From a virus, in IMG/VR virus record IMGVR_UViG_3300025096_002738, positions 17,162-81,161 of that record: DNA of 64,000 nt. The stretch is one strand, 5' to 3'. The notes under the pieces were generated by a model. The model saw only the letters and a program-made list of their open reading frames with translations. It ran no database searches and was not told the DNA's origin. A program made the translations under genes and the position numbers. Of the stretch, positions 1 through 17,275 are shown one piece after another. Each line of letters begins with the position of its first letter. Within the stretch, counting starts at the first letter, position 1.

Positions 1-29
1 CGCCCAGAAACACAGGCAGGGCCGGCAAA

Positions 30-377
30 ATGAGCTTACCTGTTTTTGTAGAAAATAGCAAAGTACCAGTTTGGCTATCAAAGATTTCTCCGATTGAGAT
101 TGAAGCTATAAGCCTAGGCGTTTTTGTATTTTCGAGAGGAACAATAAGCGAAACCACGCGCCGGCACGAAACCATTCACTATCACCAATGGAGAGAGCTA
201 GCCTTTCTTCTATTCCCAATTTTATATGGGCTTTTTTGGTTGGTTGGTTTTGCTAGGTATCGAGATGGTGTCAAAGCATATTATGCTATACCATTTGAGC
301 GTGAGGCTTATGTAAATGATGATAATCCAGACTATTTAGAAAAAAGGCCATTTTGGGCATGGAGAAAGTATTTATGA
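30..377 (+). CDS. Small zincin-like (HExxH) metallopeptidase family protein with a hydrophobic segment
   Basis: RRHETIHYHQ (HExxH), downstream FEREAY third-ligand-like motif, hydrophobic stretch LAFLLFPILYGLFWLVGF. Confidence 0.55.
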   Translation: MSLPVFVENSKVPVWLSKISPIEIEAISLGVFVFSRGTISETTRRHETIHYHQWRELAFLLFPILYGLFWLVGFARYRDGVKAYYAIPFEREAYVNDDNPDYLEKRPFWAWRKYL

Positions 378-415
378 AACTCTTAATTGAAAATTGGCGA
401 GAGTATTTAGACGAA
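374..415 (+). repeat. Leader-coding repeat, copy 1 (37/42 nt identical to 1003-1044)
   Basis: atgaaactcttaattgaaaattggcgagagtatttagacgaa vs atgaaactcctacttgaaaattggcgagagtttgtaaacgaa. Confidence 0.9.
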
Positions 416-1006
416 ATGGTGTCAGATGGCAGAGGGCTTGCACATCACGGACAGTTCAAGGGCTTAATTGAAAGAGATGTGAATATACCAAAAATGGTAG
501 GCTACCATGTGACCAGAGCGGTGTTTGATCAGTTTGATAATAGCAGATTAGGAAGCAATACCGATATGGGTAAAGCCGGCCAAGATAAATATAACTTAGA
601 CAGCTATCTCGGACATATGTTCGTTCCAGATTATCAGCAATTAGGACCGCACAAAGACAAGCTTGTGGGAGATGGAAATACCCCTTATATGTATTCTGTC
701 ACATTAACGCCCGGTAAGGTAGCCGTGTTGAACATTAAACGATTTAAAAAATGGTTCAGCGCTGATGCGAAGCACTCAAGACAAAATCTTAAGGAATTTG
801 GAAAATGGCTGAAGCAAAATGGATACGGTGGCTTGCATTACTCAGATCCGACGATGAAAGGCAGACTTATGGCTGACACAATACAAATATTTGATGCTGG
901 TGATACCAAGATCAGAAGTATCTGGAACATGGATACAGACGTAAGATTCCGAGCCAAAGATTTACAAGGTCAATCATTTGCAGATGCTTTTGGGGCTAAC
1001 CAATGA
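374..1006 (+). CDS. Putative ADP-ribosyltransferase (ART-PolyVal-like) with an N-terminal leader peptide
   Basis: Start refined to ATG 374 (MKLLIENWREYLDE). YHVT..FDQFD, YLGHMF, GYGGLHY and QIFD..TKI match the YHGT..F..F / G.YF / GYDG / VF...QIK layout of polyvalent-protein ARTs. Confidence 0.55.
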   Translation: MKLLIENWREYLDEMVSDGRGLAHHGQFKGLIERDVNIPKMVGYHVTRAVFDQFDNSRLGSNTDMGKAGQDKYNLDSYLGHMFVPDYQQLGPHKDKLVGDGNTPYMYSVTLTPGKVAVLNIKRFKKWFSADAKHSRQNLKEFGKWLKQNGYGGLHYSDPTMKGRLMADTIQIFDAGDTKIRSIWNMDTDVRFRAKDLQGQSFADAFGANQ

Positions 1007-1044
1007 AACTCCTACTTGAAAATTGGCGAGAGTTTGTAAACGAA
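1003..1044 (+). repeat. Leader-coding repeat, copy 2
   Basis: Direct repeat of 374-415 at the start of an unrelated gene. Confidence 0.9.
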
Positions 1045-1632
1045 AAGAAATGGGAAGATTATGAGATCGACAAAAATACTTGGACCGAATTCTCTCCTGA
1101 TGAAATAGAAGCCTCTCGTGATCCTATTGAGGTGGATCTTCCAGAGGAATTTATAGCCTTAATTAACAAGGCTTATGAAAAAATTGGAGGAAACTTTGAT
1201 TTTGGGGCCCCCGAAGACGTTCCCGGTGATGCTGATATTTGGGCGGCAATCGATATTGATGATGACCCCGAGCCCGACGCTCTTAGAATCGGAAAAACAA
1301 AACCGCACGGTGTTAAGCTCTCTGCTTCGGGGCACGACGGCACTCGCCCAGGAATCAATGCTTACATACAAAAAACAGCCGATTTGTTAAATAGTCCCGG
1401 CTATTACGCAGAAATGTCTAAAGGGATTGCCCACGTTATGTTAAAATATCATAATGTTTCTTATGTTGATGATCCTGAAAAAGTACAGAAGATTTTAGGA
1501 CCATCAAAACTAATTAAATGGCTTGGACCTCACCCTGAAGGAAAATATCCTGGTATTGATGGATGGTACACCCGCACTATCTCAGGGCACGAGGATGAAT
1601 TAAAGATTATGTTAGGAGAGCCAAACGCATGA
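1003..1632 (+). CDS. Hypothetical phage protein with the same leader (possibly GNAT-like fold)
   Basis: 209 aa, starts MKLLLENWREFVNE, ATGA overlap with the upstream gene; fold assignment is only a guess. Confidence 0.6.
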   Translation: MKLLLENWREFVNEKKWEDYEIDKNTWTEFSPDEIEASRDPIEVDLPEEFIALINKAYEKIGGNFDFGAPEDVPGDADIWAAIDIDDDPEPDALRIGKTKPHGVKLSASGHDGTRPGINAYIQKTADLLNSPGYYAEMSKGIAHVMLKYHNVSYVDDPEKVQKILGPSKLIKWLGPHPEGKYPGIDGWYTRTISGHEDELKIMLGEPNA

Positions 1633-4433
1633 AAGATTGGCTTCAAGATTGGAATAAATTTCTAAACGAAGAGAAACAAGTTGTTTCAACGCGAGAAGAA
1701 CTAGTTGATCTATTGCGAGATAATCCTGACCAAAAAAGAAAGCTGGATATGCGCAAGGGAGAAGGACACAAGTCTTTTGGCGGTGTCTTCAATCCGCCAA
1801 TACAGGTTGAGTTCGATTATGGAGAGTTTCCAGAGTTGATCAATCCTGCCGACGGCATGGGTTGGGATATAATTCTTGCTGACAACTCTAATATAGATGA
1901 CGATAATCTATTGCCAGTTGGGCACTTTGGTTACATTCAAGATAAAGATCTATGGAATAACCATGGTGTATACGATATGCCAGAAAAGGTGGGCGGAAAC
2001 TCTAAGATTGTTTTGTCAAAAGATGGCAATATTAGTGGCGCCGAAAAAGATCATCTTACAAAATTCTTCGAAGATATGTGGCAGTTTGAAAAGCCGGAAT
2101 GGTATACTGTTGAAGAAGAGCGTATTCTTCGAGAAGTTACCGAAGACGAGCTACGAGTAGTTGAAGATATCTTAGATAAAATGGCTGAGGATCCAAAATG
2201 GCTGCCATTTAATGATATATTTGGCGACAAAACTCGGTTAGTCATTAACTTTCCAACTATGGATAGACATTCTGAACTTGGTAGATTTGCTGATGTGATA
2301 CAGAATCAGCTTGGACTATCTGTAGACTGGAACAAAGGTACTGTTTCCGCTGATAGACGATGGAATGACCACGTCGGTGCAACAGAACGCATCGCAAACA
2401 GGCTTGTCGGAGGGAATGCCAATGAACAAGATAGTGGAGTAATAGAAAGAAGCTTTACCATGAAAATTGGTAAGTATTTTGCTAGATTAGAAAATCTTTT
2501 AAAGAAACTTTATGATACAAAACACGCGGTGAGATCGAACAGATTCGTGCACATGCAGTCGCTTTCTTCAAGGATGGTAATAGATGCTATAGGCGAAGAT
2601 GGAAATAAGCGATATGACCAACTTTTGAATCAATTAGAATTGTATCTAGGAGGATCTGGAGGGAAAGCTAATAAGCACTGGTCGTCTAAAGATAGAGAAG
2701 AAGGAGATCCTGTTTCGGAATTCCCGGAATTTGCCGACTATTGGCAAAAAAATGCCGCTTATATTAAGCAAAATCTGAGTTCTCTTAACAGCGATAAGTA
2801 TTCAATAATCATTACTCGACACCCAATTGATGTTCTTCGAATGAGTGATTATGAAAATATTACATCTTGTCATTCTCCTCCAAGCCAAGAAAAAGTTGGG
2901 CAAAGTTACTATAAATGCGCGGCAGCAGAAGCTCAGGGCCATGGGGCAATTGCATATGTTATAGAAACAGAAGAACTACTTTCTGAAACAAACACAGGTA
3001 ATATTGAAAGCGCCGAGCAGGAAATTCAAGAAGGCGAAATATTTTACGACGATCAGAGGCCCCAAGATACGGGAGATATAAGACCAGTTTCGCGAGTTCG
3101 GGTACGGAAGCTAATGTACTCTGAAGATGATGAGACTGGCGGCCAAGATTTTGCGTTACCTGAAAAGCGTATTTACGGCGCCGGCATTCCTGGCATAGCC
3201 GATCGGGTTCGCGAGTGGGGTAGACAAACACAAGAAGCAAAGATTGAGAATCTGCCAACAAAAGATGGCAAAATTAATCTCAACGATTTCCAGATATACG
3301 GCGGATCTTATGAAGACACTGCCGGGTGGGTGGGTCGTGAAGAGTTGATGTTGCTTCTTTTGCAAAAACCAAGCAACGATTTTACTGGCAGGATTAGCCA
3401 AAACATAGAAACTGAAGATGATTTAGATGCTGAGCTTCTTGGTGACCCAGCCGGAATGTATGAAAATGAGTGCCGGCTGATTGCAGCGGAATGGAACAAT
3501 AGATATGCTAGTGTTAGTGTTGGTTACCAAGTAGAAGGTGATGGAGCCGATGGTGTTTATATTGGAGCAGAAGCTACGATACACATTAAATGGGACGCTG
3601 ACGAATGGACTAGCCTTCCCAATACTTGGGACAGAATTGTAAGTTATAGCGCCGATGAGTTAAATGGCTTGTTTGGAGATCTTTTTCTAGACCGGGCCCG
3701 CTTGTATCGTTCGGGGCAGGAAATTAAATGGGAATGTTCGCTTAATCTTGAGCACCCAGATTTCGGTGGACAATCTTATATGGTAATACCATACGAGTTT
3801 AATGAGATGTGTGAGGTCGTCGATGTAAACGCTGACGATAGACGGGATGCTTTTAAGGAATATCTTACCGAATACTTTAGACGCGAAGGATTTATACAAG
3901 GCGCCCAATATGTGCAACTTGCTATGTCGATTGAAGATGGAGGGGGTGACCACCTAGAGTGGGATGTAGAAACCGACGGTGAGTATACAAGTTCATATGT
4001 GTCGTATGCTTCTGTTAGTTTTTATTATGATCCAGAAGAATGGAAAATAGATCCGAGAGTATTACTTCAAATATTAGATTCGCGCGATTTTAAAATATTA
4101 TTAAGAAATAATATGCTAGCGGGCCCTAGAAGACAAATATCTACTGATTATTATCTTGATATTTCAAGCGCCGGCGCCGTTGATGTCGGAGGCGAACTTA
4201 AATATACAATCCAGTTTAAGATCACACTTGATGATCCAGACGAAAGAGTAGAGTTATTTAAAGAACTCGTCACCGGTGATATGGATGATGAAGACGAAAT
4301 AACACGAGTATTTAACAAAACTCTTGCTCAAATAAAATACGAAATGAGCCATGGCACTGCGTGGGGATCAGACCTCGACGATATTCAAGAAAGCATGCAG
4401 CGGCGATGGACAAGATTCCTGCTGGATGTATGA
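1629..4433 (+). CDS. Large acidic multidomain protein: leader, degenerate inorganic-pyrophosphatase-like domain, then unknown domains
   Basis: MKDWLQDWNKFLNE leader. FDYGEFPELINPADGMGWDIIL..NSKIVL resembles family I PPase NYGYI..T...DGDPVDV..DAKLV. Central ITRHPIDVLRMSD..TSCH..RIYG block. Confidence 0.5.
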   Translation: MKDWLQDWNKFLNEEKQVVSTREELVDLLRDNPDQKRKLDMRKGEGHKSFGGVFNPPIQVEFDYGEFPELINPADGMGWDIILADNSNIDDDNLLPVGHFGYIQDKDLWNNHGVYDMPEKVGGNSKIVLSKDGNISGAEKDHLTKFFEDMWQFEKPEWYTVEEERILREVTEDELRVVEDILDKMAEDPKWLPFNDIFGDKTRLVINFPTMDRHSELGRFADVIQNQLGLSVDWNKGTVSADRRWNDHVGATERIANRLVGGNANEQDSGVIERSFTMKIGKYFARLENLLKKLYDTKHAVRSNRFVHMQSLSSRMVIDAIGEDGNKRYDQLLNQLELYLGGSGGKANKHWSSKDREEGDPVSEFPEFADYWQKNAAYIKQNLSSLNSDKYSIIITRHPIDVLRMSDYENITSCHSPPSQEKVGQSYYKCAAAEAQGHGAIAYVIETEELLSETNTGNIESAEQEIQEGEIFYDDQRPQDTGDIRPVSRVRVRKLMYSEDDETGGQDFALPEKRIYGAGIPGIADRVREWGRQTQEAKIENLPTKDGKINLNDFQIYGGSYEDTAGWVGREELMLLLLQKPSNDFTGRISQNIETEDDLDAELLGDPAGMYENECRLIAAEWNNRYASVSVGYQVEGDGADGVYIGAEATIHIKWDADEWTSLPNTWDRIVSYSADELNGLFGDLFLDRARLYRSGQEIKWECSLNLEHPDFGGQSYMVIPYEFNEMCEVVDVNADDRRDAFKEYLTEYFRREGFIQGAQYVQLAMSIEDGGGDHLEWDVETDGEYTSSYVSYASVSFYYDPEEWKIDPRVLLQILDSRDFKILLRNNMLAGPRRQISTDYYLDISSAGAVDVGGELKYTIQFKITLDDPDERVELFKELVTGDMDDEDEITRVFNKTLAQIKYEMSHGTAWGSDLDDIQESMQRRWTRFLLDV

Positions 4434-4758
4434 ATACAACGCGAAATTAGACAGAATCATTGATGGTGACACGGTAGACGCCCTCATTGATCTAGGTTTT
4501 GATATTTGGATCAAAAAGCGTATTCGTCTATACGGCATAGATGCCCCTGAGACACGCACAAGAGACTTAGAGGAGAAGAGCCTAGGGTTCGCTGCCAAGG
4601 AGCGCTTAGAAGAGCTTCTAGAGGCTTCTGGGGGGCTGTTTGTACTCTCTTCTGCTGGTGTTGGCAAGTATGGCAGGTGTCTTGGGACAATCTTTATCGA
4701 TAACAAAAACATAAATGAACTTTTAATTTCGGAAGGCCACGCGTCGATATACGAGTAA
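4426..4758 (+). CDS. Thermonuclease (staphylococcal nuclease-like)
   Basis: Start refined to ATG 4426 (MYEY). IIDGDT, IRLYGIDAPE, GKYGRCLG and INELLISEGHA motifs. Confidence 0.9.
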   Translation: MYEYNAKLDRIIDGDTVDALIDLGFDIWIKKRIRLYGIDAPETRTRDLEEKSLGFAAKERLEELLEASGGLFVLSSAGVGKYGRCLGTIFIDNKNINELLISEGHASIYE

Positions 4759-4809
4759 GAAATAGGTTATTTTATTACTTCTATAACAAATATAAAAGAT
4801 ACGTGACCG

Positions 4810-4832
4810 GGGAGTGTTCTGTAACACTTTTA
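4810..4832 (+). terminator. Weak hairpin, possible terminator
   Basis: AGTGTT-ctgt-AACACT followed by TTT in the intergenic gap. Confidence 0.3.
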
Positions 4833-4874
4833 AATGCAGCAAGAGCCTAGTTATGTCTGTAAGAGGAGATAGAA

Positions 4875-5201
4875 ATGTCGCAAGATCAGCCGGGTTGGGG
4901 AGAATATTCCAGATTAGTCCTACAGCAACTTGAAACTTTGTCTTCAGGGATCGAGTCATTACGCACAGAACTTCAAGATATGAAAGGCCAGCTTACTGAG
5001 CTTAAAGCTAAAGAAGATCGTGTACAAGACTTGAAAGCTTGGAAAGAAAAGATGGACGAAGTTGCTTCCCCCACGCAGCTAAAAGAACTTGTGGCTCATG
5101 TAGAGGAACTTAAGACCTTCAAGACCAAAGCTGTGACTATATTTATGGTTGTTCAGTTTGGAATGGGTGTCGCCATGGCTCTTTTATCATATTTTAAATA
5201 A
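4875..5201 (+). CDS. Coiled-coil protein with a C-terminal transmembrane helix (holin/XhlA-like architecture)
   Basis: Heptad-like N-terminus, hydrophobic C-terminus AVTIFMVVQFGMGVAMALL, GAGGAG RBS. Confidence 0.6.
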   Translation: MSQDQPGWGEYSRLVLQQLETLSSGIESLRTELQDMKGQLTELKAKEDRVQDLKAWKEKMDEVASPTQLKELVAHVEELKTFKTKAVTIFMVVQFGMGVAMALLSYFK

Positions 5202-5221
5202 CCCGTATCTCACATATTTCG

Positions 5222-5515
5222 ATGTCATCAAACAATAAACCCACTGTTGAACAGGTTTTGAAAGTATTGATGAGACAATTAACAGGAAAACTAACTGAAT
5301 CAGATTCTGTTGTTCCGCAAATAATCATTAAAGGCGAAGGAAATATTTGGGCCTGGGATCCGTATAATAAAAAGTTAATTTGCGTAGAAAGAGGAACCAT
5401 CGGCTATATTCTTATGGAAAAACACAATTTAGAAAATAAAACATTAATTTATTGCTCGGGTGGTGATATAATCTGTATAGACCCCGACGAGATCGAGCCA
5501 ATTGGTTTAAATTAA
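5222..5515 (+). CDS. Hypothetical protein
   Basis: 97 aa ORF fitting the gene tiling. Confidence 0.65.
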   Translation: MSSNNKPTVEQVLKVLMRQLTGKLTESDSVVPQIIIKGEGNIWAWDPYNKKLICVERGTIGYILMEKHNLENKTLIYCSGGDIICIDPDEIEPIGLN

Positions 5516-5670
5516 TGTTTTATGCGTTTAATTCATTCTGGTATGGAGTGACAGCTTTATGTGCGACATGGATGTTTTATAGTTTGTTCGACTATGAAGC
5601 CTGTGTTGTTACACTATTAACCCTAATATTTTTACAAACTAAAAGGAAAGATGAAAATACAAGTAATTAA
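5515..5670 (+). CDS. Small membrane protein (51 aa), not in the ORF track
   Basis: TAATG overlap with the upstream stop; MFYAFNSFWYGVTALCATWMFYSLFDYEACVVTLLTLIFLQTKRKDENTSN has two hydrophobic segments. Confidence 0.55.
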   Translation: MFYAFNSFWYGVTALCATWMFYSLFDYEACVVTLLTLIFLQTKRKDENTSN

Positions 5671-5812
5671 TTATAGAACAGGCGCCGTGAAAGTGTTTGA
5701 TTCAGAAGAGGAAGAAATTCAGCCGTTTATTTACAAAGAGCGTTATTATAAGTCAGGAAGAGTGCATAAGCCTACTTATAGACAGGATGGAAGGGAAAAA
5801 AACAAGCCATAA
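5651..5812 (+). CDS. Small hypothetical protein (53 aa), not in the ORF track
   Basis: AAGGA upstream; MKIQVINYRTGAVKVFDSEEEEIQPFIYKERYYKSGRVHKPTYRQDGREKNKP fills the gap between neighbouring genes. Confidence 0.45.
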   Translation: MKIQVINYRTGAVKVFDSEEEEIQPFIYKERYYKSGRVHKPTYRQDGREKNKP

Positions 5813-6002
5813 GAAAAGAAGGTACCTTTCTCAAAGACTTCAAGATGAAAAAGGACCTATCTTTCTAGTCTTTATTCACACCCCTGAAAGATATTTTACG
5901 AAATCGGAGGGGCCATTTAAAGATCAAACAAAAGCTTTTGAGGTGATGGCCGAGCATTTGCGCCGTGGCCATATTTCATGGATTGTCTCATACGATGCAT
6001 AA
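5787..6002 (+). CDS. Hypothetical protein
   Basis: In-frame ATG at 5787 (MEGKKTSH), 7 nt after a CTACTTAT motif. Confidence 0.5.
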   Translation: MEGKKTSHKKRRYLSQRLQDEKGPIFLVFIHTPERYFTKSEGPFKDQTKAFEVMAEHLRRGHISWIVSYDA

Positions 6003-6249
6003 AAAAGATGATTTTGGCTCGATAGTCGAAAAAGACTTCAGAGTAGGAGATATTGTAGAGTGGTCTACATTTAATGCTATAGAATCTGAATGGACGACCC
6101 ATTACGGAATTATTACCACTATTTGTAAAGAGATTGAGTCAGAAAGATTAGTATCTGTTTCCAAAGTGTTGCCACTTAATGGCCCACAAGTAGAAATTAA
6201 GTTTTTCACAGCCAGTTTAAGATTGGTTTCAGAAAGAAAGGGGTCGTAA
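5995..6249 (+). CDS. Small beta-rich (SH3/KOW-like) hypothetical protein
   Basis: FRVGDIVEW..HYGII pattern; start refined to ATG 5995. Confidence 0.55.
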   Translation: MHKKDDFGSIVEKDFRVGDIVEWSTFNAIESEWTTHYGIITTICKEIESERLVSVSKVLPLNGPQVEIKFFTASLRLVSERKGS

Positions 6250-6256
6250 GAAGCCA

Positions 6257-6601
6257 ATGAGTTCTAAAATAGATCATGTAGCATTATTAGTAGATGATTT
6301 GGAAATAGCCGAGACTTGGTATTTAGAAAATCTAGATGCTGTAGTTGAATTTAAGGATCAATATTATACCAGACTTCGTTTACATCATACCTGTATTGCT
6401 TTAATAGACAGGACACACTACCCACGAGAACATATAGGAATTTTGATAGAAAATATCGAAGATTTGCCCACTGAGCGAGGAGAAGTAGTGAAACATCGCG
6501 ATGGGACCATAGGAGTTTATGTAAAAGACCCTTTTGGTAACTATTTAGAGTATATTTGGTATTCTGACAACCAAAAGAAGGTTTTTTTGAAAGATGGCTG
6601 A
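6257..6601 (+). CDS. VOC/glyoxalase family protein
   Basis: IDHVALLVDDL, HIGILIENIED and YVKDPFGNYLE are typical VOC motifs. Confidence 0.85.
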   Translation: MSSKIDHVALLVDDLEIAETWYLENLDAVVEFKDQYYTRLRLHHTCIALIDRTHYPREHIGILIENIEDLPTERGEVVKHRDGTIGVYVKDPFGNYLEYIWYSDNQKKVFLKDG

Positions 6602-7577
6602 TATTGATTCTTTAATGCCGCTGATTAAACACTTTATGCCCTTTGCTCAAGAGCGAATGGGGTTTAAAGAGCCACCGCGCTTGTTTCTTAAAGGAGACAC
6701 AGATAATGCGTCCGATCCTCTAGGACGGACAGCTTTCTATGATCCTGCCGAACGCGCGGTGACAGTGTATATCACCAGTCGTCACCCAAAAGACATTCTA
6801 AGGTCCATATCTCATGAGCTTGTTCACCACACTCAAAACTGTAATGGTGATTTTAGCGATGCTGGTGAGATGGGTGAGGGGTATGCACAAAGCAACCCTC
6901 ACATGAGAGAAATGGAGCGTCAAGCATACGAAATGGGGAATATGTGTTTCCGAGATTGGGAAGACACAATAAAACAGACTATTTATCATGAGCATCTAAA
7001 TAAAGGAGATTATACGATGTCAACTAAAGATTGGAAAAACAAGGAGATGAAAAGTCTTCTCTCAGAGGCATGGGGGTTCAAAATGGACCTCAATAGAATA
7101 AACGAGGTGTCCGACAACGAAGATGTCATGGATGCAAAGGAGGAAACCGAAGGTGATGCCGTCGATGCTGAAGAAGAAGCGGCACTTGAAGAAGATTCTG
7201 CGGCTAAACACAGAACGGCCGGGAATACCATCGACGAGGAAAGCGATGCTGAAATCGAAGAATGTGGTGAAATGCCAGAAGAAGGCGAGATTGTCGTAAT
7301 GGGAGATGAAGAGTCTGGTGTCGAAGTTGGCGCGGAAGATCCTGCCGAGCGTGTAGGCGCACTGATGGATGAACTTAAGGGATTACTGATGCAACTCGCT
7401 GGTGGTGGTGAGAGTGCGGCCATGGCAGATGAAGACCCTATGGAAGAAGGCGGAAGCGGTCGCAAAGACCCAGTACGCAAGCGCCCAGGCCGCGATTCTG
7501 ATGATAGAACACGACCTATGCAAGAAGAGAAAATGCGTGCGATGGTGCGCAAGGCAATTAAGGAAGCGATGAAATAA
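6594..7577 (+). CDS. Zincin (HExxH) domain fused to an acidic low-complexity region; probable in-frame internal start at 7017
   Basis: LRSISHELVHHTQ and MERQAY motifs; AAGGAG RBS 8 nt before ATG 7017; E/D-rich C-terminal half ending EEKMRAMVRKAIKEAMK. Confidence 0.65.
   Translation: MADIDSLMPLIKHFMPFAQERMGFKEPPRLFLKGDTDNASDPLGRTAFYDPAERAVTVYITSRHPKDILRSISHELVHHTQNCNGDFSDAGEMGEGYAQSNPHMREMERQAYEMGNMCFRDWEDTIKQTIYHEHLNKGDYTMSTKDWKNKEMKSLLSEAWGFKMDLNRINEVSDNEDVMDAKEETEGDAVDAEEEAALEEDSAAKHRTAGNTIDEESDAEIEECGEMPEEGEIVVMGDEESGVEVGAEDPAERVGALMDELKGLLMQLAGGGESAAMADEDPMEEGGSGRKDPVRKRPGRDSDDRTRPMQEEKMRAMVRKAIKEAMK
6979..6986 (+). promoter_or_regulatory. CTAnTTA motif (putative phage late promoter) before the internal start at 7017
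   Basis: CTATTTAT; similar copies at 332, 4847, 5772, 6541, 10047, 14730, 42239 and 49194, each shortly upstream of a start codon. Confidence 0.5.
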
Positions 7578-7829
7578 ATGTCTGCTGACTCCAATTGGAG
7601 TGACTTCTTGCAGGAAGGAATAACTGAAAAGACTATTTTCACTTATATTCAAGGACTACAAGAGGTTATCAACAACCTCCAACCTAAAACCCTTAAAGAA
7701 AAGAACCGTCTAACGCTTGCAAAACAACACTTGCGAGAAATTAGACGGCAAGCTCGACGTATGCTCAACGAAAATGTTGAATTGCAAGAAAAGCTGACGT
7801 TACTAGAAGAAAACAAAGGAGGTGAGTAA
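7578..7829 (+). CDS. Small coiled-coil protein with a leader-like N-terminus
   Basis: MSADSNWSDFLQE resembles the W..F[LV].E leader; abuts both neighbouring genes. Confidence 0.65.
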   Translation: MSADSNWSDFLQEGITEKTIFTYIQGLQEVINNLQPKTLKEKNRLTLAKQHLREIRRQARRMLNENVELQEKLTLLEENKGGE

Positions 7830-10076
7830 ATGGGCGGTGCTGGCGGACATATGCGTCATCCTCATGATTTAAATGAGGTGGAAGATGGTCAAGATGTTGT
7901 TAACCTTTTTAAAGCTATTCCAGCTTATCTTAAAACCAAAGAGTTTCAAGGTGGTGCATCTTCTTCTTTAAAGGTTGATGGTAGTAATAATGGCTTAAAA
8001 GTTGTTGTACGTAATGGCGACTATACTTTTGCAGTTGATCGTGGGACACAGATGGCCGCTGACGTGGCGGGAGTGTCCTTGGGCGACATGGACATCCGAT
8101 GGCCCGAGAAAATCGATCCTGCGACCGGTGAGGCCAAGCCACGGGGGCTGATGGGTTCATCTATACAACTTGTTACTATGATGAATGAGGCTTTAGCTGC
8201 AAATCGAGCCAAGATGGTTGGATTATTAACACAACTCGGCCTTTTACAAGAAGACGGCTACCCCGATTTAAGTAAGTTTATTATGATCGAGTGGGTCGAG
8301 CGAAGAGCATTTGATCACCCCACCAATCCTGATCTCGGTAGAGCGAACGTTATTTATTATCCTTACGATTTTATTGCGTTTCTTGGTGTAAATCAGTTTT
8401 TTGAAATGACCAATCGTCACGGTGAAGTCACGCGACCGAGTGACCTTAAGGCCACAGAAGAAGACTCGGGTCCTGGAAAACCTGCTTCTTATGATCGCGA
8501 AGCACTATCGGAACTCGTTGAAATGGTTAAGCCATTTGCCCCTGAAGGTTTTGAGGTTTTATCTCCAATCTCCCTTAAAGTCGCGGTGGGCGGTGATGTG
8601 CCAGAAGAGGAACAGGAAGCAGCAGTCACAGAGGCTGTTAGCACTTTAGCTCAAAACATCGATGCCACATTACAAGAGCAGATTCCGATTAGACTGCACA
8701 GCGGCGACGATAGGTTACCAACTACTCACACTTTAGAAGAGTGGTTAGGAATGGCCGAGAACTTTCCCTATAAGCCAGATATCAAGATAAAACAAATGGT
8801 CGGCGAAGAAGAACGCATTAGAAAAGTCAGCCCTTTTCACAAAGATATTCATAAGGCTCTGTTTTATGAAAATGTTGCGTTACCCGATCTTGTTGTTGAT
8901 ACAGAAATAGCTGAAGCTGTTCGCGGGGATTTAACTCCTTCACTAAAAGCGCTCTATGGTGCAATCTTTATAGAAGCCGCACGAAGATTAGGTAATACTG
9001 TCAAACAATCTTTAGGTTCGAGCGTAGAAGAGTTTGGACCTACGGTCAGTCATGAAGGGGTTGTTATCGATGCTGGAATGAAGTTCGGAGATAAAAAAAC
9101 AGGACACCCTTTTAAGATTACAGGAGAGTTCATTGTGGATGCCACCGGTGGTGCATATGCTGGCGGTCAAGCATTGGAAGAGCAGGGAGTAGATTTAGAA
9201 GTTATCGAAGATGAAGGTGGAGATCCTGTTGTCGATGTAGATGCTGCTCCGCAAACAGTTGCGTTGGTGCCGGGAGCATTTAAGCCTCCACACAAGGGGC
9301 ATGCCGATATGGTGAGAGCCTATGCAACTGGAGATGGAGTGCCAAAAGCAGATAGAACCATTATTTTGATTTCCAACCCTGAAGGTGCTTTACGCAGTTT
9401 GCCTCATGATAGTTCAGAAGTAAACGCAGAACATTCCCGACAAATTTGGGAAACAGTTTTTTCCGATGTTACAAGTTTGCCGGGTGTTGAAATAGAAATA
9501 GCTTCTTCAGACATGCGATCTCCGGTGAGTATTGCTTATGAATATATTAGCGAAACAACTCCACTAGATATTAGGGCCGGCGACAATGTTATTCTGGGAG
9601 CAAGCAGAAAGGACCGCGATTACGAGCGCTGGAAGGGTGCTACAGAGTATCATAAGAAGAAGCAGGGGGTGAATGTCCTTGCCGGCGAAGAGTACGCTGT
9701 GGAGCCTTCAGAGCGCTCTGATGGTAAAAACTTTAGCGCTAGCGATTCGCGGCAGTTGATCAGCAATTTGGTTACTAATCCAGAAGATATGGAATCACTT
9801 CGACAATTAACTGAATATATCCCACAAGATAAGATTGATGAGTTATATCGTATTCTCGGACAGCCATCGCCTGTTTCACCAGAACCGCCCGAAGAAGCAG
9901 AGATAGAAATAATACCGCCAGAAGAATCCGAACTGGAGGAACTGTCGGCAGTCGGGGCAGGCGCCATCGAAGGACCTGGCGGAAGAAGAAAGAAAAAGAG
10001 CATTATTAGAAGAGAAAATAAACAAACCGTTGATGACGTAATAAGACTACTTATGGAAAGAGGTATCATGACATGA
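7830..10076 (+). CDS. ATP-dependent ligase-like nucleotidyltransferase fused to an HxGH cytidylyltransferase-like domain
   Basis: LKVDG (motif I), HEGVVI (motif IV), PFKITG (motif V); C-terminal VPGAFKPPHKGH and FSAS; strong GGAGGTG RBS. Confidence 0.7.
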   Translation: MGGAGGHMRHPHDLNEVEDGQDVVNLFKAIPAYLKTKEFQGGASSSLKVDGSNNGLKVVVRNGDYTFAVDRGTQMAADVAGVSLGDMDIRWPEKIDPATGEAKPRGLMGSSIQLVTMMNEALAANRAKMVGLLTQLGLLQEDGYPDLSKFIMIEWVERRAFDHPTNPDLGRANVIYYPYDFIAFLGVNQFFEMTNRHGEVTRPSDLKATEEDSGPGKPASYDREALSELVEMVKPFAPEGFEVLSPISLKVAVGGDVPEEEQEAAVTEAVSTLAQNIDATLQEQIPIRLHSGDDRLPTTHTLEEWLGMAENFPYKPDIKIKQMVGEEERIRKVSPFHKDIHKALFYENVALPDLVVDTEIAEAVRGDLTPSLKALYGAIFIEAARRLGNTVKQSLGSSVEEFGPTVSHEGVVIDAGMKFGDKKTGHPFKITGEFIVDATGGAYAGGQALEEQGVDLEVIEDEGGDPVVDVDAAPQTVALVPGAFKPPHKGHADMVRAYATGDGVPKADRTIILISNPEGALRSLPHDSSEVNAEHSRQIWETVFSDVTSLPGVEIEIASSDMRSPVSIAYEYISETTPLDIRAGDNVILGASRKDRDYERWKGATEYHKKKQGVNVLAGEEYAVEPSERSDGKNFSASDSRQLISNLVTNPEDMESLRQLTEYIPQDKIDELYRILGQPSPVSPEPPEEAEIEIIPPEESELEELSAVGAGAIEGPGGRRKKKSIIRRENKQTVDDVIRLLMERGIMT

Positions 10077-16795: not shown

Positions 16796-17275
16796 ATGAA
16801 CATATATGAAAGATTAGCAACTCTTAACTTGCCTGAAGATACCGATGTCACTCTGACCTATAGTCAGGGAACAGGTGTGTTTGTTCACAACGAAACTGCC
16901 GTTGATACAGCAATTGCTGATACAGATGTTATTAGTGAGTTTGCTGATCTAGTCGCAACTCCAGGGCTTCAGACGTCCGTTCCGTATGTCGGCAACGTGC
17001 TGGAGACCATGAGAGAAAGCGGCTTTCTAGATGATTATGAGCGCGGCAGTTTTGCATTTGAAGACTTTATTCGTGAAGTTCTCCATGGCAATTTCTATGA
17101 TCAAGAGTTCATTGGGAACTCGATAAAGCGTTACGATTATAAACGAGGCTTCTGTACTCTAGAGACAACAGTTACAGTCCCTCTGGCTAATTTTCTAGAT
17201 CTCCAGCCCTTGGTGTATGGATGGGTTGTATCAGTAGCTACCCCTGCTGGTACCCTCACCGTCACCGACGACTAA
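16796..17275 (+). CDS. Hypothetical protein
   Basis: 159 aa ORF in the operon. Confidence 0.7.
   Translation: MNIYERLATLNLPEDTDVTLTYSQGTGVFVHNETAVDTAIADTDVISEFADLVATPGLQTSVPYVGNVLETMRESGFLDDYERGSFAFEDFIREVLHGNFYDQEFIGNSIKRYDYKRGFCTLETTVTVPLANFLDLQPLVYGWVVSVATPAGTLTVTDD

Follow-up and report, generated by a model that had tools for sequence, protein, structure and literature searches.

Exchange of whole genes at a conserved 42-nucleotide in-frame leader, a putative capsid-targeting tag, in tandem arrays of uncultured marine T4-like phages

The internal proteins of phage T4 are described in three papers as having only a capsid-targeting sequence (CTS) in common (PMC3012670, PMC9958956, PMC12373910), and PMC3012670, PMC12373910 and PMC4122927 describe the ip loci as polymorphic among T-even phages, with a conserved leader. 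According to PMC5694885, gp21 of T4 cuts the protein Alt at ITE-6 and LTE-619. A second described arrangement is that of the PeSLs (promoter-early stem-loop cassettes), short repeats flanking accessory genes in the hyperplastic regions of T4-type phages; as given in PMC2839356 (Arbiol et al. 2010) and PMC4122927 (Comeau et al. 2014), the junctions of indels and replacements lie in these repeats, and their shuffling was proposed to proceed by homologous recombination, possibly via excised mini-circles. We examined a 64,000-nucleotide stretch of viral DNA (positions 17,162 to 81,161 of the 81-kb IMG/VR record IMGVR_UViG_3300025096_002738; hereafter the window), in which two adjacent genes begin with nearly the same 42 nucleotides, encoding a 14-residue leader peptide, and are otherwise unrelated. 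The explanation that we prefer, and to which we assign a probability of about 0.7, is that this leader would be one copy of a family-wide repeat with two roles: as DNA, a handle for the exchange of whole genes, and as protein, a tag that would direct the gene products to the capsid.

The two leaders occupy positions 374–415 (MKLLIENWREYLDE) and 1003–1044 (MKLLLENWREFVNE) and form the first 14 codons of + strand genes for proteins of 210 and 209 amino acids, respectively. Direct alignment gave five mismatches over the 42 nucleotides, at codons 4, 5, 11, 12 and 13, in agreement with the 37/42 identity reported in an initial annotation of this DNA; the shared synonymous codons that it had listed (CTC, AAT, CGA and GAG) are present in both copies. 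That the identity ends where the leader ends was seen both in the pair alignment and in a family-wide information profile, in which the conservation of DNA began exactly at the ATG and ended at about +42; the profile held no conserved element upstream of the ATG. The DNA core consists of the first 27 nucleotides. It is canonical in the leader at 1003, whose ATG overlaps the preceding stop codon (ATGA), and contains a rare variant of codons 4–5, TTA ATT, in the leader at 374. A 31-nucleotide consensus of both leaders, searched with up to 3 mismatches, matched the window in these two places only, and none of 100 dinucleotide shuffles was matched. The regions behind the leaders (hereafter, cargoes) are indeed non-homologous, as had been claimed; their best BLASTP comparison gave E = 2.3.

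The initial annotation had spoken of an array of two adjacent genes, which stands except for its size: within the 81-kb contig, nine of ten consecutive genes, overlapping stop to start, begin with the leader peptide, whose consensus is MKLLLENWR-x-[YF]-[LIV]-x-E. Six further copies precede the window, at genome positions 14183, 14728, 15098, 16243, 16494 and 16991. The ninth, at window positions 1629–1670 on the + strand (MKDWLQDWNKFLNE), is diverged; it has kept W..[F]L.E and lost the DNA core, and the longest exact runs that it shares with the other leaders of this contig are 6–8 nucleotides. One copy of this genome, MRLLFENWQKYCDM, is without the [LIV]-x-E end because of a 30-nucleotide deletion polymorphism: at genome position 14211 (L078:1211), upstream of the window, contigs from sequencing runs X5 and X10 have a 30-nucleotide insertion, placed 28 nucleotides into the first gene of the array, and the insertion gives back the full leader (…WQK-YLNEEEELTI…).

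Related loci (L001–L072) were fetched from IMG/VR by degenerate back-translation of the leader, with residues MK-LLL-ENWRE fixed in one copy per locus and the synonymous codons left open. Leader-bearing open reading frames (ORFs) were present in 71 of the 72 fetched stretches, at 1–10 in each and nearly always in tandem, and all core copies within any one genome were on a single strand. The 168 cargo ORFs of at least 60 amino acids fell into 78 families, and the leader was the sole similarity among otherwise unrelated proteins (E 2.3 between the cargo bodies of the two genes studied here); the exact 27-nucleotide core was found in 65 of 225 leader copies. Near-duplicate loci (L004, L021, L025, L037, L042, L059, L062, L066, L067 and L071) were left out of the synonymous, leader/body, profile and structure analyses, and ORFs shorter than 40 amino acids were also left out of the synonymous, profile and structure analyses. 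Among 50,697 deposited phage records, none gave a real match to the 42-nucleotide leader, nor did tblastn give a match among phages for the 934-amino-acid protein encoded at the 3' end of the array; the cargo of the 209-amino-acid protein matched two unannotated metagenomic records only, both without the leader part. The nearest isolate relatives of the baseplate protein are only about 28–31% identical to it, and from this, together with the absence of the leader from deposited phages, the array belongs to an uncultured T4-like lineage. The sequencing runs holding the array were all marine metagenomes or similar, and a literature search for the leader peptide motif gave nothing relevant among the entries listed.

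We examined if the genes of the array are exchanged between relatives, and where the exchanges begin and end. Gene order was not fixed: using protein synteny, scored on crude gene calls with the leaders masked, the neighbouring gene was conserved in 11 of 210 cases between array genes, compared with 2089 of 4740 cases outside the arrays. The proposal in the initial annotation, that the leader is copied or recombined onto new genes, had carried with it a search for gain, loss or replacement of cargoes with breakpoints at the leader; such breakpoints were found in L086, L087 and further contig pairs, and these junctions support the proposal. L086 and L087, obtained by searching metagenome contigs with the 934-amino-acid gene, are close relatives (about 99% identical) of the genome studied. 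Positions 1–158 of L087 correspond to window 247–404 at 96.8% identity, and a further block corresponds to window 1002–3718 at 99.6%; exactly between the leaders at 374 and 1003, an unrelated cargo of 193 amino acids replaces that of the 210-amino-acid gene. The left homologous flank of this swap is the 3' end of the gene at 30–377. At the left junction identity persists about 27–30 nucleotides into the leader at 374 and includes the TTA-ATT variant, which occurs in 2 of the 225 leader copies; at the right junction identity is back one base before the ATG of the leader at 1003, and for L086 and L087 taken together it resumes 1–2 nucleotides before that ATG. In L086 the match to this genome stops 30 nucleotides into the leader at genome position 14728 and is back, at 99.3%, at the leader at genome position 18164 (window 1003), with 1.77 kb of foreign sequence in place of seven genes (3.4 kb).

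Similar exchanges were seen between other phages, where single leader-bounded cassettes are 95–99% identical and the flanks only 70–90% identical. A cassette of 146 amino acids in L007 is 96.1/94.6% identical to that in L043/L026, from ATG −1 to +36 of the next leader, with flanks at 70–73%; another, of 325 amino acids, is 99.4% identical between L110 and L118, and its neighbours differ. L104 and L111 differ by two indels, at which successive alignment blocks have 35 and 37 nucleotides in common; the shared stretch is the leader, and such overlaps are the signature of direct-repeat recombination. In the pair L052/L071 (98% identical) a two-base difference is found only in leader codon 11, beside the junction, and the pairs L064/L072 and L025/L050 are further cases of exchange at leaders. 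Over 106 non-redundant loci (12 duplicate or contained loci dropped, and L073–L078 excluded), 27 of the 46 internal ends of blocks with at least 93% identity fell within −12 to +42 of a leader ATG, a region that makes up 1.67% of bases; these ends are not fully independent of one another. When breaks at the level of DNA were counted at gene boundaries, 428 of 441 leader boundaries were broken compared with 2070 of 2759 elsewhere, a baseline that is too high at about 70% identity for the contrast to be informative. In the junction patterns the 5' core is retained along with the flank upstream of it, and roughly codons 10–14 travel together with the cargo. We hold it to be very probable that exchange happens at the leaders.

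The sequence that stands in L086 in place of cargoes of this genome contains an ORF of 436 amino acids (L086:634–1944). In 13 loci a homologue of this ORF immediately precedes a leader, and in L009 the leader core precedes the homologue in frame; the start of the L086 protein, MVITLEYMRRK…, looks like a decayed leader.

The identity of the leaders as DNA is greater than their peptides require. Between the leaders at 374 and 1003 the same codon is used at 7 of 8 degenerate identical residues (3.32 expected from background usage; P(≥7) = 0.0065), an agreement that, by itself and before all copies are added, is suggestive. Among the nine copies of this contig, identical codons amounted to 181/243 (0.745), compared with 0.399 ± 0.038 when simulated from background usage, and none of 2000 simulations was as high. 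Over the 225 copies, Leu3, Leu4 and Leu5 are encoded by CTC (143), CTA (157) and CTT (142), for which the background frequencies are 0.10, 0.12 and 0.25, and Arg9 is CGA in 148 of 225 (background 0.14); CTC, CTA and CGA are minor codons in these phages, but CTT is not. For pairs of homologous cargoes across genomes (20–89% amino acid identity; ORFs of at least 60 amino acids), codon identity at identical residues was 0.64–0.80 in the leader and 0.41–0.49 in the body, where it is saturated. Leader DNA identity exceeds codon bias by a wide margin. The comparison across leader copies that had been proposed at the outset thereby gave values far above the codon-bias prediction, whether taken over the copies of this contig, over all 225 copies, or as leader versus body.

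At the level of protein, the 14-residue peptide with its [LIVM]-x-E end would be a capsid-targeting propeptide like those of the T4 internal proteins and would be removed by a prohead protease of the gp21 type; the array would represent an exchangeable set of head-loaded proteins. Of 185 copies, 164 conform at residues 12–14 to [LIVM]-x-E, the type of site cut by gp21 in T4 Alt, and 183 have a second motif, [LIVMF][LIVMF]E, at residues 4–6. A gene for a gp21-type prohead protease (Peptidase_S77, PF03420) was found in each of the five large leader-bearing contigs tested, of which four are complete. By analogy with T4 we consider it probable that the leader is a capsid-targeting tag, and from this we infer packaging and cleavage.

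In the head module of a 203-kb relative (L075:533–3106), a leader-bearing gene of 182 amino acids (MKLLLEHWNRYLQEE…) immediately precedes the gene for the prohead protease, and an ORF of 356 amino acids directly downstream of the protease gene has W-R-T-F-L-N-E at about residues 18–24; neither of the two matched PHROG. A leader gene beside the protease gene occurred in this relative only, the other four being without; it gives an indirect hint of packaging and cleavage. PHROG and Pfam annotation of the cargoes and of the neighbours of the protease gene gave mostly no match; two cargoes only of the contig studied had a Pfam match, to GNAT and to DUF2441, which are different folds.

These two aspects can be joined in one proposed mechanism. 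The first 27–30 nucleotides of the leader would serve as near-invariant direct repeats, one at the 5' end of each cassette, in a tightly packed array of genes overlapping stop to start; whole cargo genes would be replaced, inserted and deleted by ordinary homologous recombination between these short in-frame repeats, and the RecA/UvsX-type machinery of the phage itself would carry out the exchange, possibly by way of excised circles as was proposed for the PeSL elements. Each product of recombination would automatically be a complete, in-frame and tagged gene. A RecA/UvsX-like gene was present in 5 of 5 large leader-bearing contigs (four complete, of 186–203 kb). A more far-reaching form of the proposal is that selection for cassette mobility would keep the leader core unchanged to the letter, as a coding "attachment site" in an integrase-free, in-frame system by which at least 78 cargo families would be pooled among divergent marine T4-like phages, the recombinants being capsid-tagged; this we offer tentatively, and would sooner doubt than rely upon it.

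If the two-role explanation is correct, one element of 42 nucleotides would both address any protein to the capsid and give the homology for in-frame gene swaps between co-infecting relatives, a swap that would need neither a dedicated recombinase nor intergenic spacers and would serve the virus in an arms race. The ideas of the T4 capsid-targeting leader and of PeSL-type shuffling would then extend to abundant uncultured phages of the ocean, and the leader would provide a sequence handle with which to catalogue the repertoire of injected proteins from metagenomes. It would also represent a clear natural case of synonymous sites that hold information unrelated to codon bias.

Several points weigh against this explanation. 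The contig studied gave no PF03420 match, being a fragment (CheckV 18%) without the head module. The leader is conserved everywhere, so that a crossover can be placed only by means of two diagnostic variants; the exact homology is short, at 18 nucleotides for the 374/1003 pair and at most 36 nucleotides among the copies of this contig; and without intergenic space, any viable exchange of a whole gene must end near a gene start. Synonymous identity was 0.697 within genomes and 0.684 between genomes, a difference reached in 48 of 300 permutations, and from this equality there is no signal of local gene conversion. The equality fits a shared pool of cassettes and, equally, direct selection on the RNA or on the start of translation. 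All of the comparisons come from assembled metagenome contigs, and in a check at the level of reads, for which 24 marine runs were found to hold parts of the array, the Logan k=31 contigs of runs X5, X10, X13 and X16 end at leaders.

The alternative that survives best is that the first 30 or so nucleotides are conserved for a function in the RNA or in translation, as an initiation region, a regulator site or a codon ramp, and that recombination is a by-product. It would account for the equal conservation within and between genomes, and it agrees with the location of the strongest conservation in codons 2–9, right after the ATG, and its weakening by codons 12–13. Codon 2 is AAA in 192 of the 225 copies, and slightly less structure was predicted for the region than for shuffles of it (mean z +0.29), as is expected near start codons. 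The combination CGG-GAG was found in 0 cases compared with 58 of CGA-GAG, as if a GGAG-type motif were being avoided. (At codons 9–10 over all loci, CGG-AAG occurred 17 times and CGG-GAG never; the absence of the latter may represent avoidance of such a motif, or it may represent two leader haplotypes.) This alternative is opposed by the finding of neither a conserved secondary structure nor a conserved upstream element, and neither low structure nor selection for rare codons would fix three different Leu codons at three neighbouring positions. It accounts for the conservation but not for the cassette junctions, which need homology anyway; we judge it to be unlikely, while keeping it in consideration, and note that it and the recombination reading are not mutually exclusive. 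That the DNA conservation was selected for recombination is possible, at somewhat less than an even chance in our estimate.

The swaps could also represent artefacts of metagenome assembly, with the repeated leader as the point at which sequences of different phages were joined. The leader core is repeated in many co-occurring phages, and Logan k=31 contigs break at every leader, with hundreds of short contigs there; all of the leader-to-leader joints listed for these contigs had a short side of 21–29 nucleotides and were flagged as unreliable, and the loose ends at leader edges came largely from the leader genes of other phages. However, the repeat is only 27–36 nucleotides, which is below read length and below the usual final k of assemblers, and each swap would need two independent misjoins. 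The left junction in L087, with its rare variant, matches canonical leaders exactly over only about 12–15 nucleotides, which would not suffice for a misjoin, and many contig pairs, drawn from different records, show the same pattern at identities of 94–99.6% rather than 100%. An origin of the swaps in assembly is accordingly very improbable.

A dedicated site-specific recombinase that recognizes the leader, as IntI recognizes attC, would fit the cassette-like layout, with one conserved short site per cassette and a single orientation. Tyrosine recombinases (PF00589) were found in 0 of 5 records (four complete relatives and the contig studied) by a search that detected the control in 14 of 14 genomes and was limited to this class, neither serine recombinases nor unknown enzymes being searched. 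The leader shows neither dyad symmetry nor a fold (structure versus shuffles, mean z +0.29, slightly less structured), and the positions of the junctions vary between cases; we give this alternative hardly any credence. The "integron-like array" of the initial annotation therefore holds as an analogy and fails in the literal sense, there being no tyrosine recombinase in the five records and no attC-like fold. Least credible of all is that the leaders are alike merely as the starts of recent tandem duplicates with diverged bodies, an idea suggested by tandem genes on the same strand with similar starts and contradicted by cargo bodies with no detectable homology (E 2.3), by the spread of 168 cargo ORFs over 78 families, by synonymous sites that are saturated in the bodies and not in the leaders, and by the different folds of the GNAT and DUF2441 cargoes.

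The remaining features at the left end of the window are as follows. The gene at 30–377 (+ strand) encodes a leaderless protein of 115 amino acids with an HExxH motif and a match to phrog_15610, "protease" (E 6e-25); it is the only leaderless gene of the array and is preceded by a leader-bearing ORF of 67 amino acids with the usual ATGA overlap. The first cargo body, 196 amino acids after the leader (416–1006, + strand), has no Pfam or PHROG match, and its homologue in L003 stands behind a different leader core. The second cargo body (1045–1632, + strand) belongs to a "KKWE" family with leader-preceded homologues at 10 or more other loci, where the neighbours differ. The 934-amino-acid gene (1629–4433, + strand) forms the 3' end of the array and is a fusion of a leader cargo with a conserved large protein: the first 155 or so amino acids are homologous to a leader cargo of 156 amino acids in L003, and the remainder has as its homologue a leaderless protein of about 810–880 amino acids (MLTDEEIL…) that adjoins arrays in other lineages. 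Diverged leaders could have been a trait of stable genes; this idea was dropped because the conserved neighbour gene is leaderless in other lineages. Upstream of the window, G+C content was 54–58% in genome positions 1–8000 (about the first 8 kb) compared with 38–47% in the next 16 kb, the window itself being at 39–50%; this high-G+C end may represent a separate early region, DNA gained from elsewhere, or chimerism at the end of the contig.

In comparison with the T4 CTS, as carried by IPI–III and Alt, the leader is likewise a short N-terminal peptide that starts with MK, ends with [IL]-x-E and stands on otherwise unrelated proteins; the T4 internal-protein system and the leader phages both encode a gp21-type prohead protease (here 5/5), and the T-even ip loci and the leader arrays both differ between related phages. 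T4 ipII and ipIII do not differ in their DNA between about −18 and +32 relative to the ATG, and from this shared leader DNA, together with the polymorphic ip loci, the principle is already known. By eye, 4 of the first 10 residues of the leader are identical to the ipII/ipIII peptide, a stretch that is too short for statistics. The leader here differs from the T4 CTS in having 14 residues rather than 10 and a different sequence; the arrays differ from the T4 ip loci in extending to as many as 9–10 genes, which overlap stop to start without spacers between them, and in cargoes that reach 934 amino acids, include enzyme folds (GNAT), make up at least 78 families and occur in divergent uncultured marine lineages.

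As with the PeSLs, the junctions between close relatives fall in the repeat. A PeSL, however, is intergenic and consists of a promoter and a terminator hairpin, whereas the repeat here is coding, with frame and tag preserved; promoter-like and terminator-like sites in the array showed no excess (24 versus 22.9 ± 3.9, and 8 versus 7.4 ± 2.9, respectively). Like an integron, the array consists of unrelated cassettes that look promoterless and all point the same way; every cassette has a single short conserved site and comes from a common pool. Integrons have IntI, and no such gene was found here (PF00589, 0/5); attC is a folded, imperfect palindrome at the 3' end of the cassette, whereas the leader is unfolded, 5', and inside the ORF, with variable junctions. 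In polymorphic toxin loci, a conserved motif within the ORF, before the CdiA-CT or Rhs tips, marks the homologous exchange of variable modules, and orphan cassettes occur. Those motifs precede C-terminal tips in bacterial genes that are accompanied by immunity genes, whereas the leader here is N-terminal and the exchanged units are whole phage genes. The new elements are the leader sequence, arrays of this length and tight packing, cargoes as large as enzymes, the wide occurrence across uncultured marine lineages, the quantified synonymous conservation, and the junctions inside the leader.

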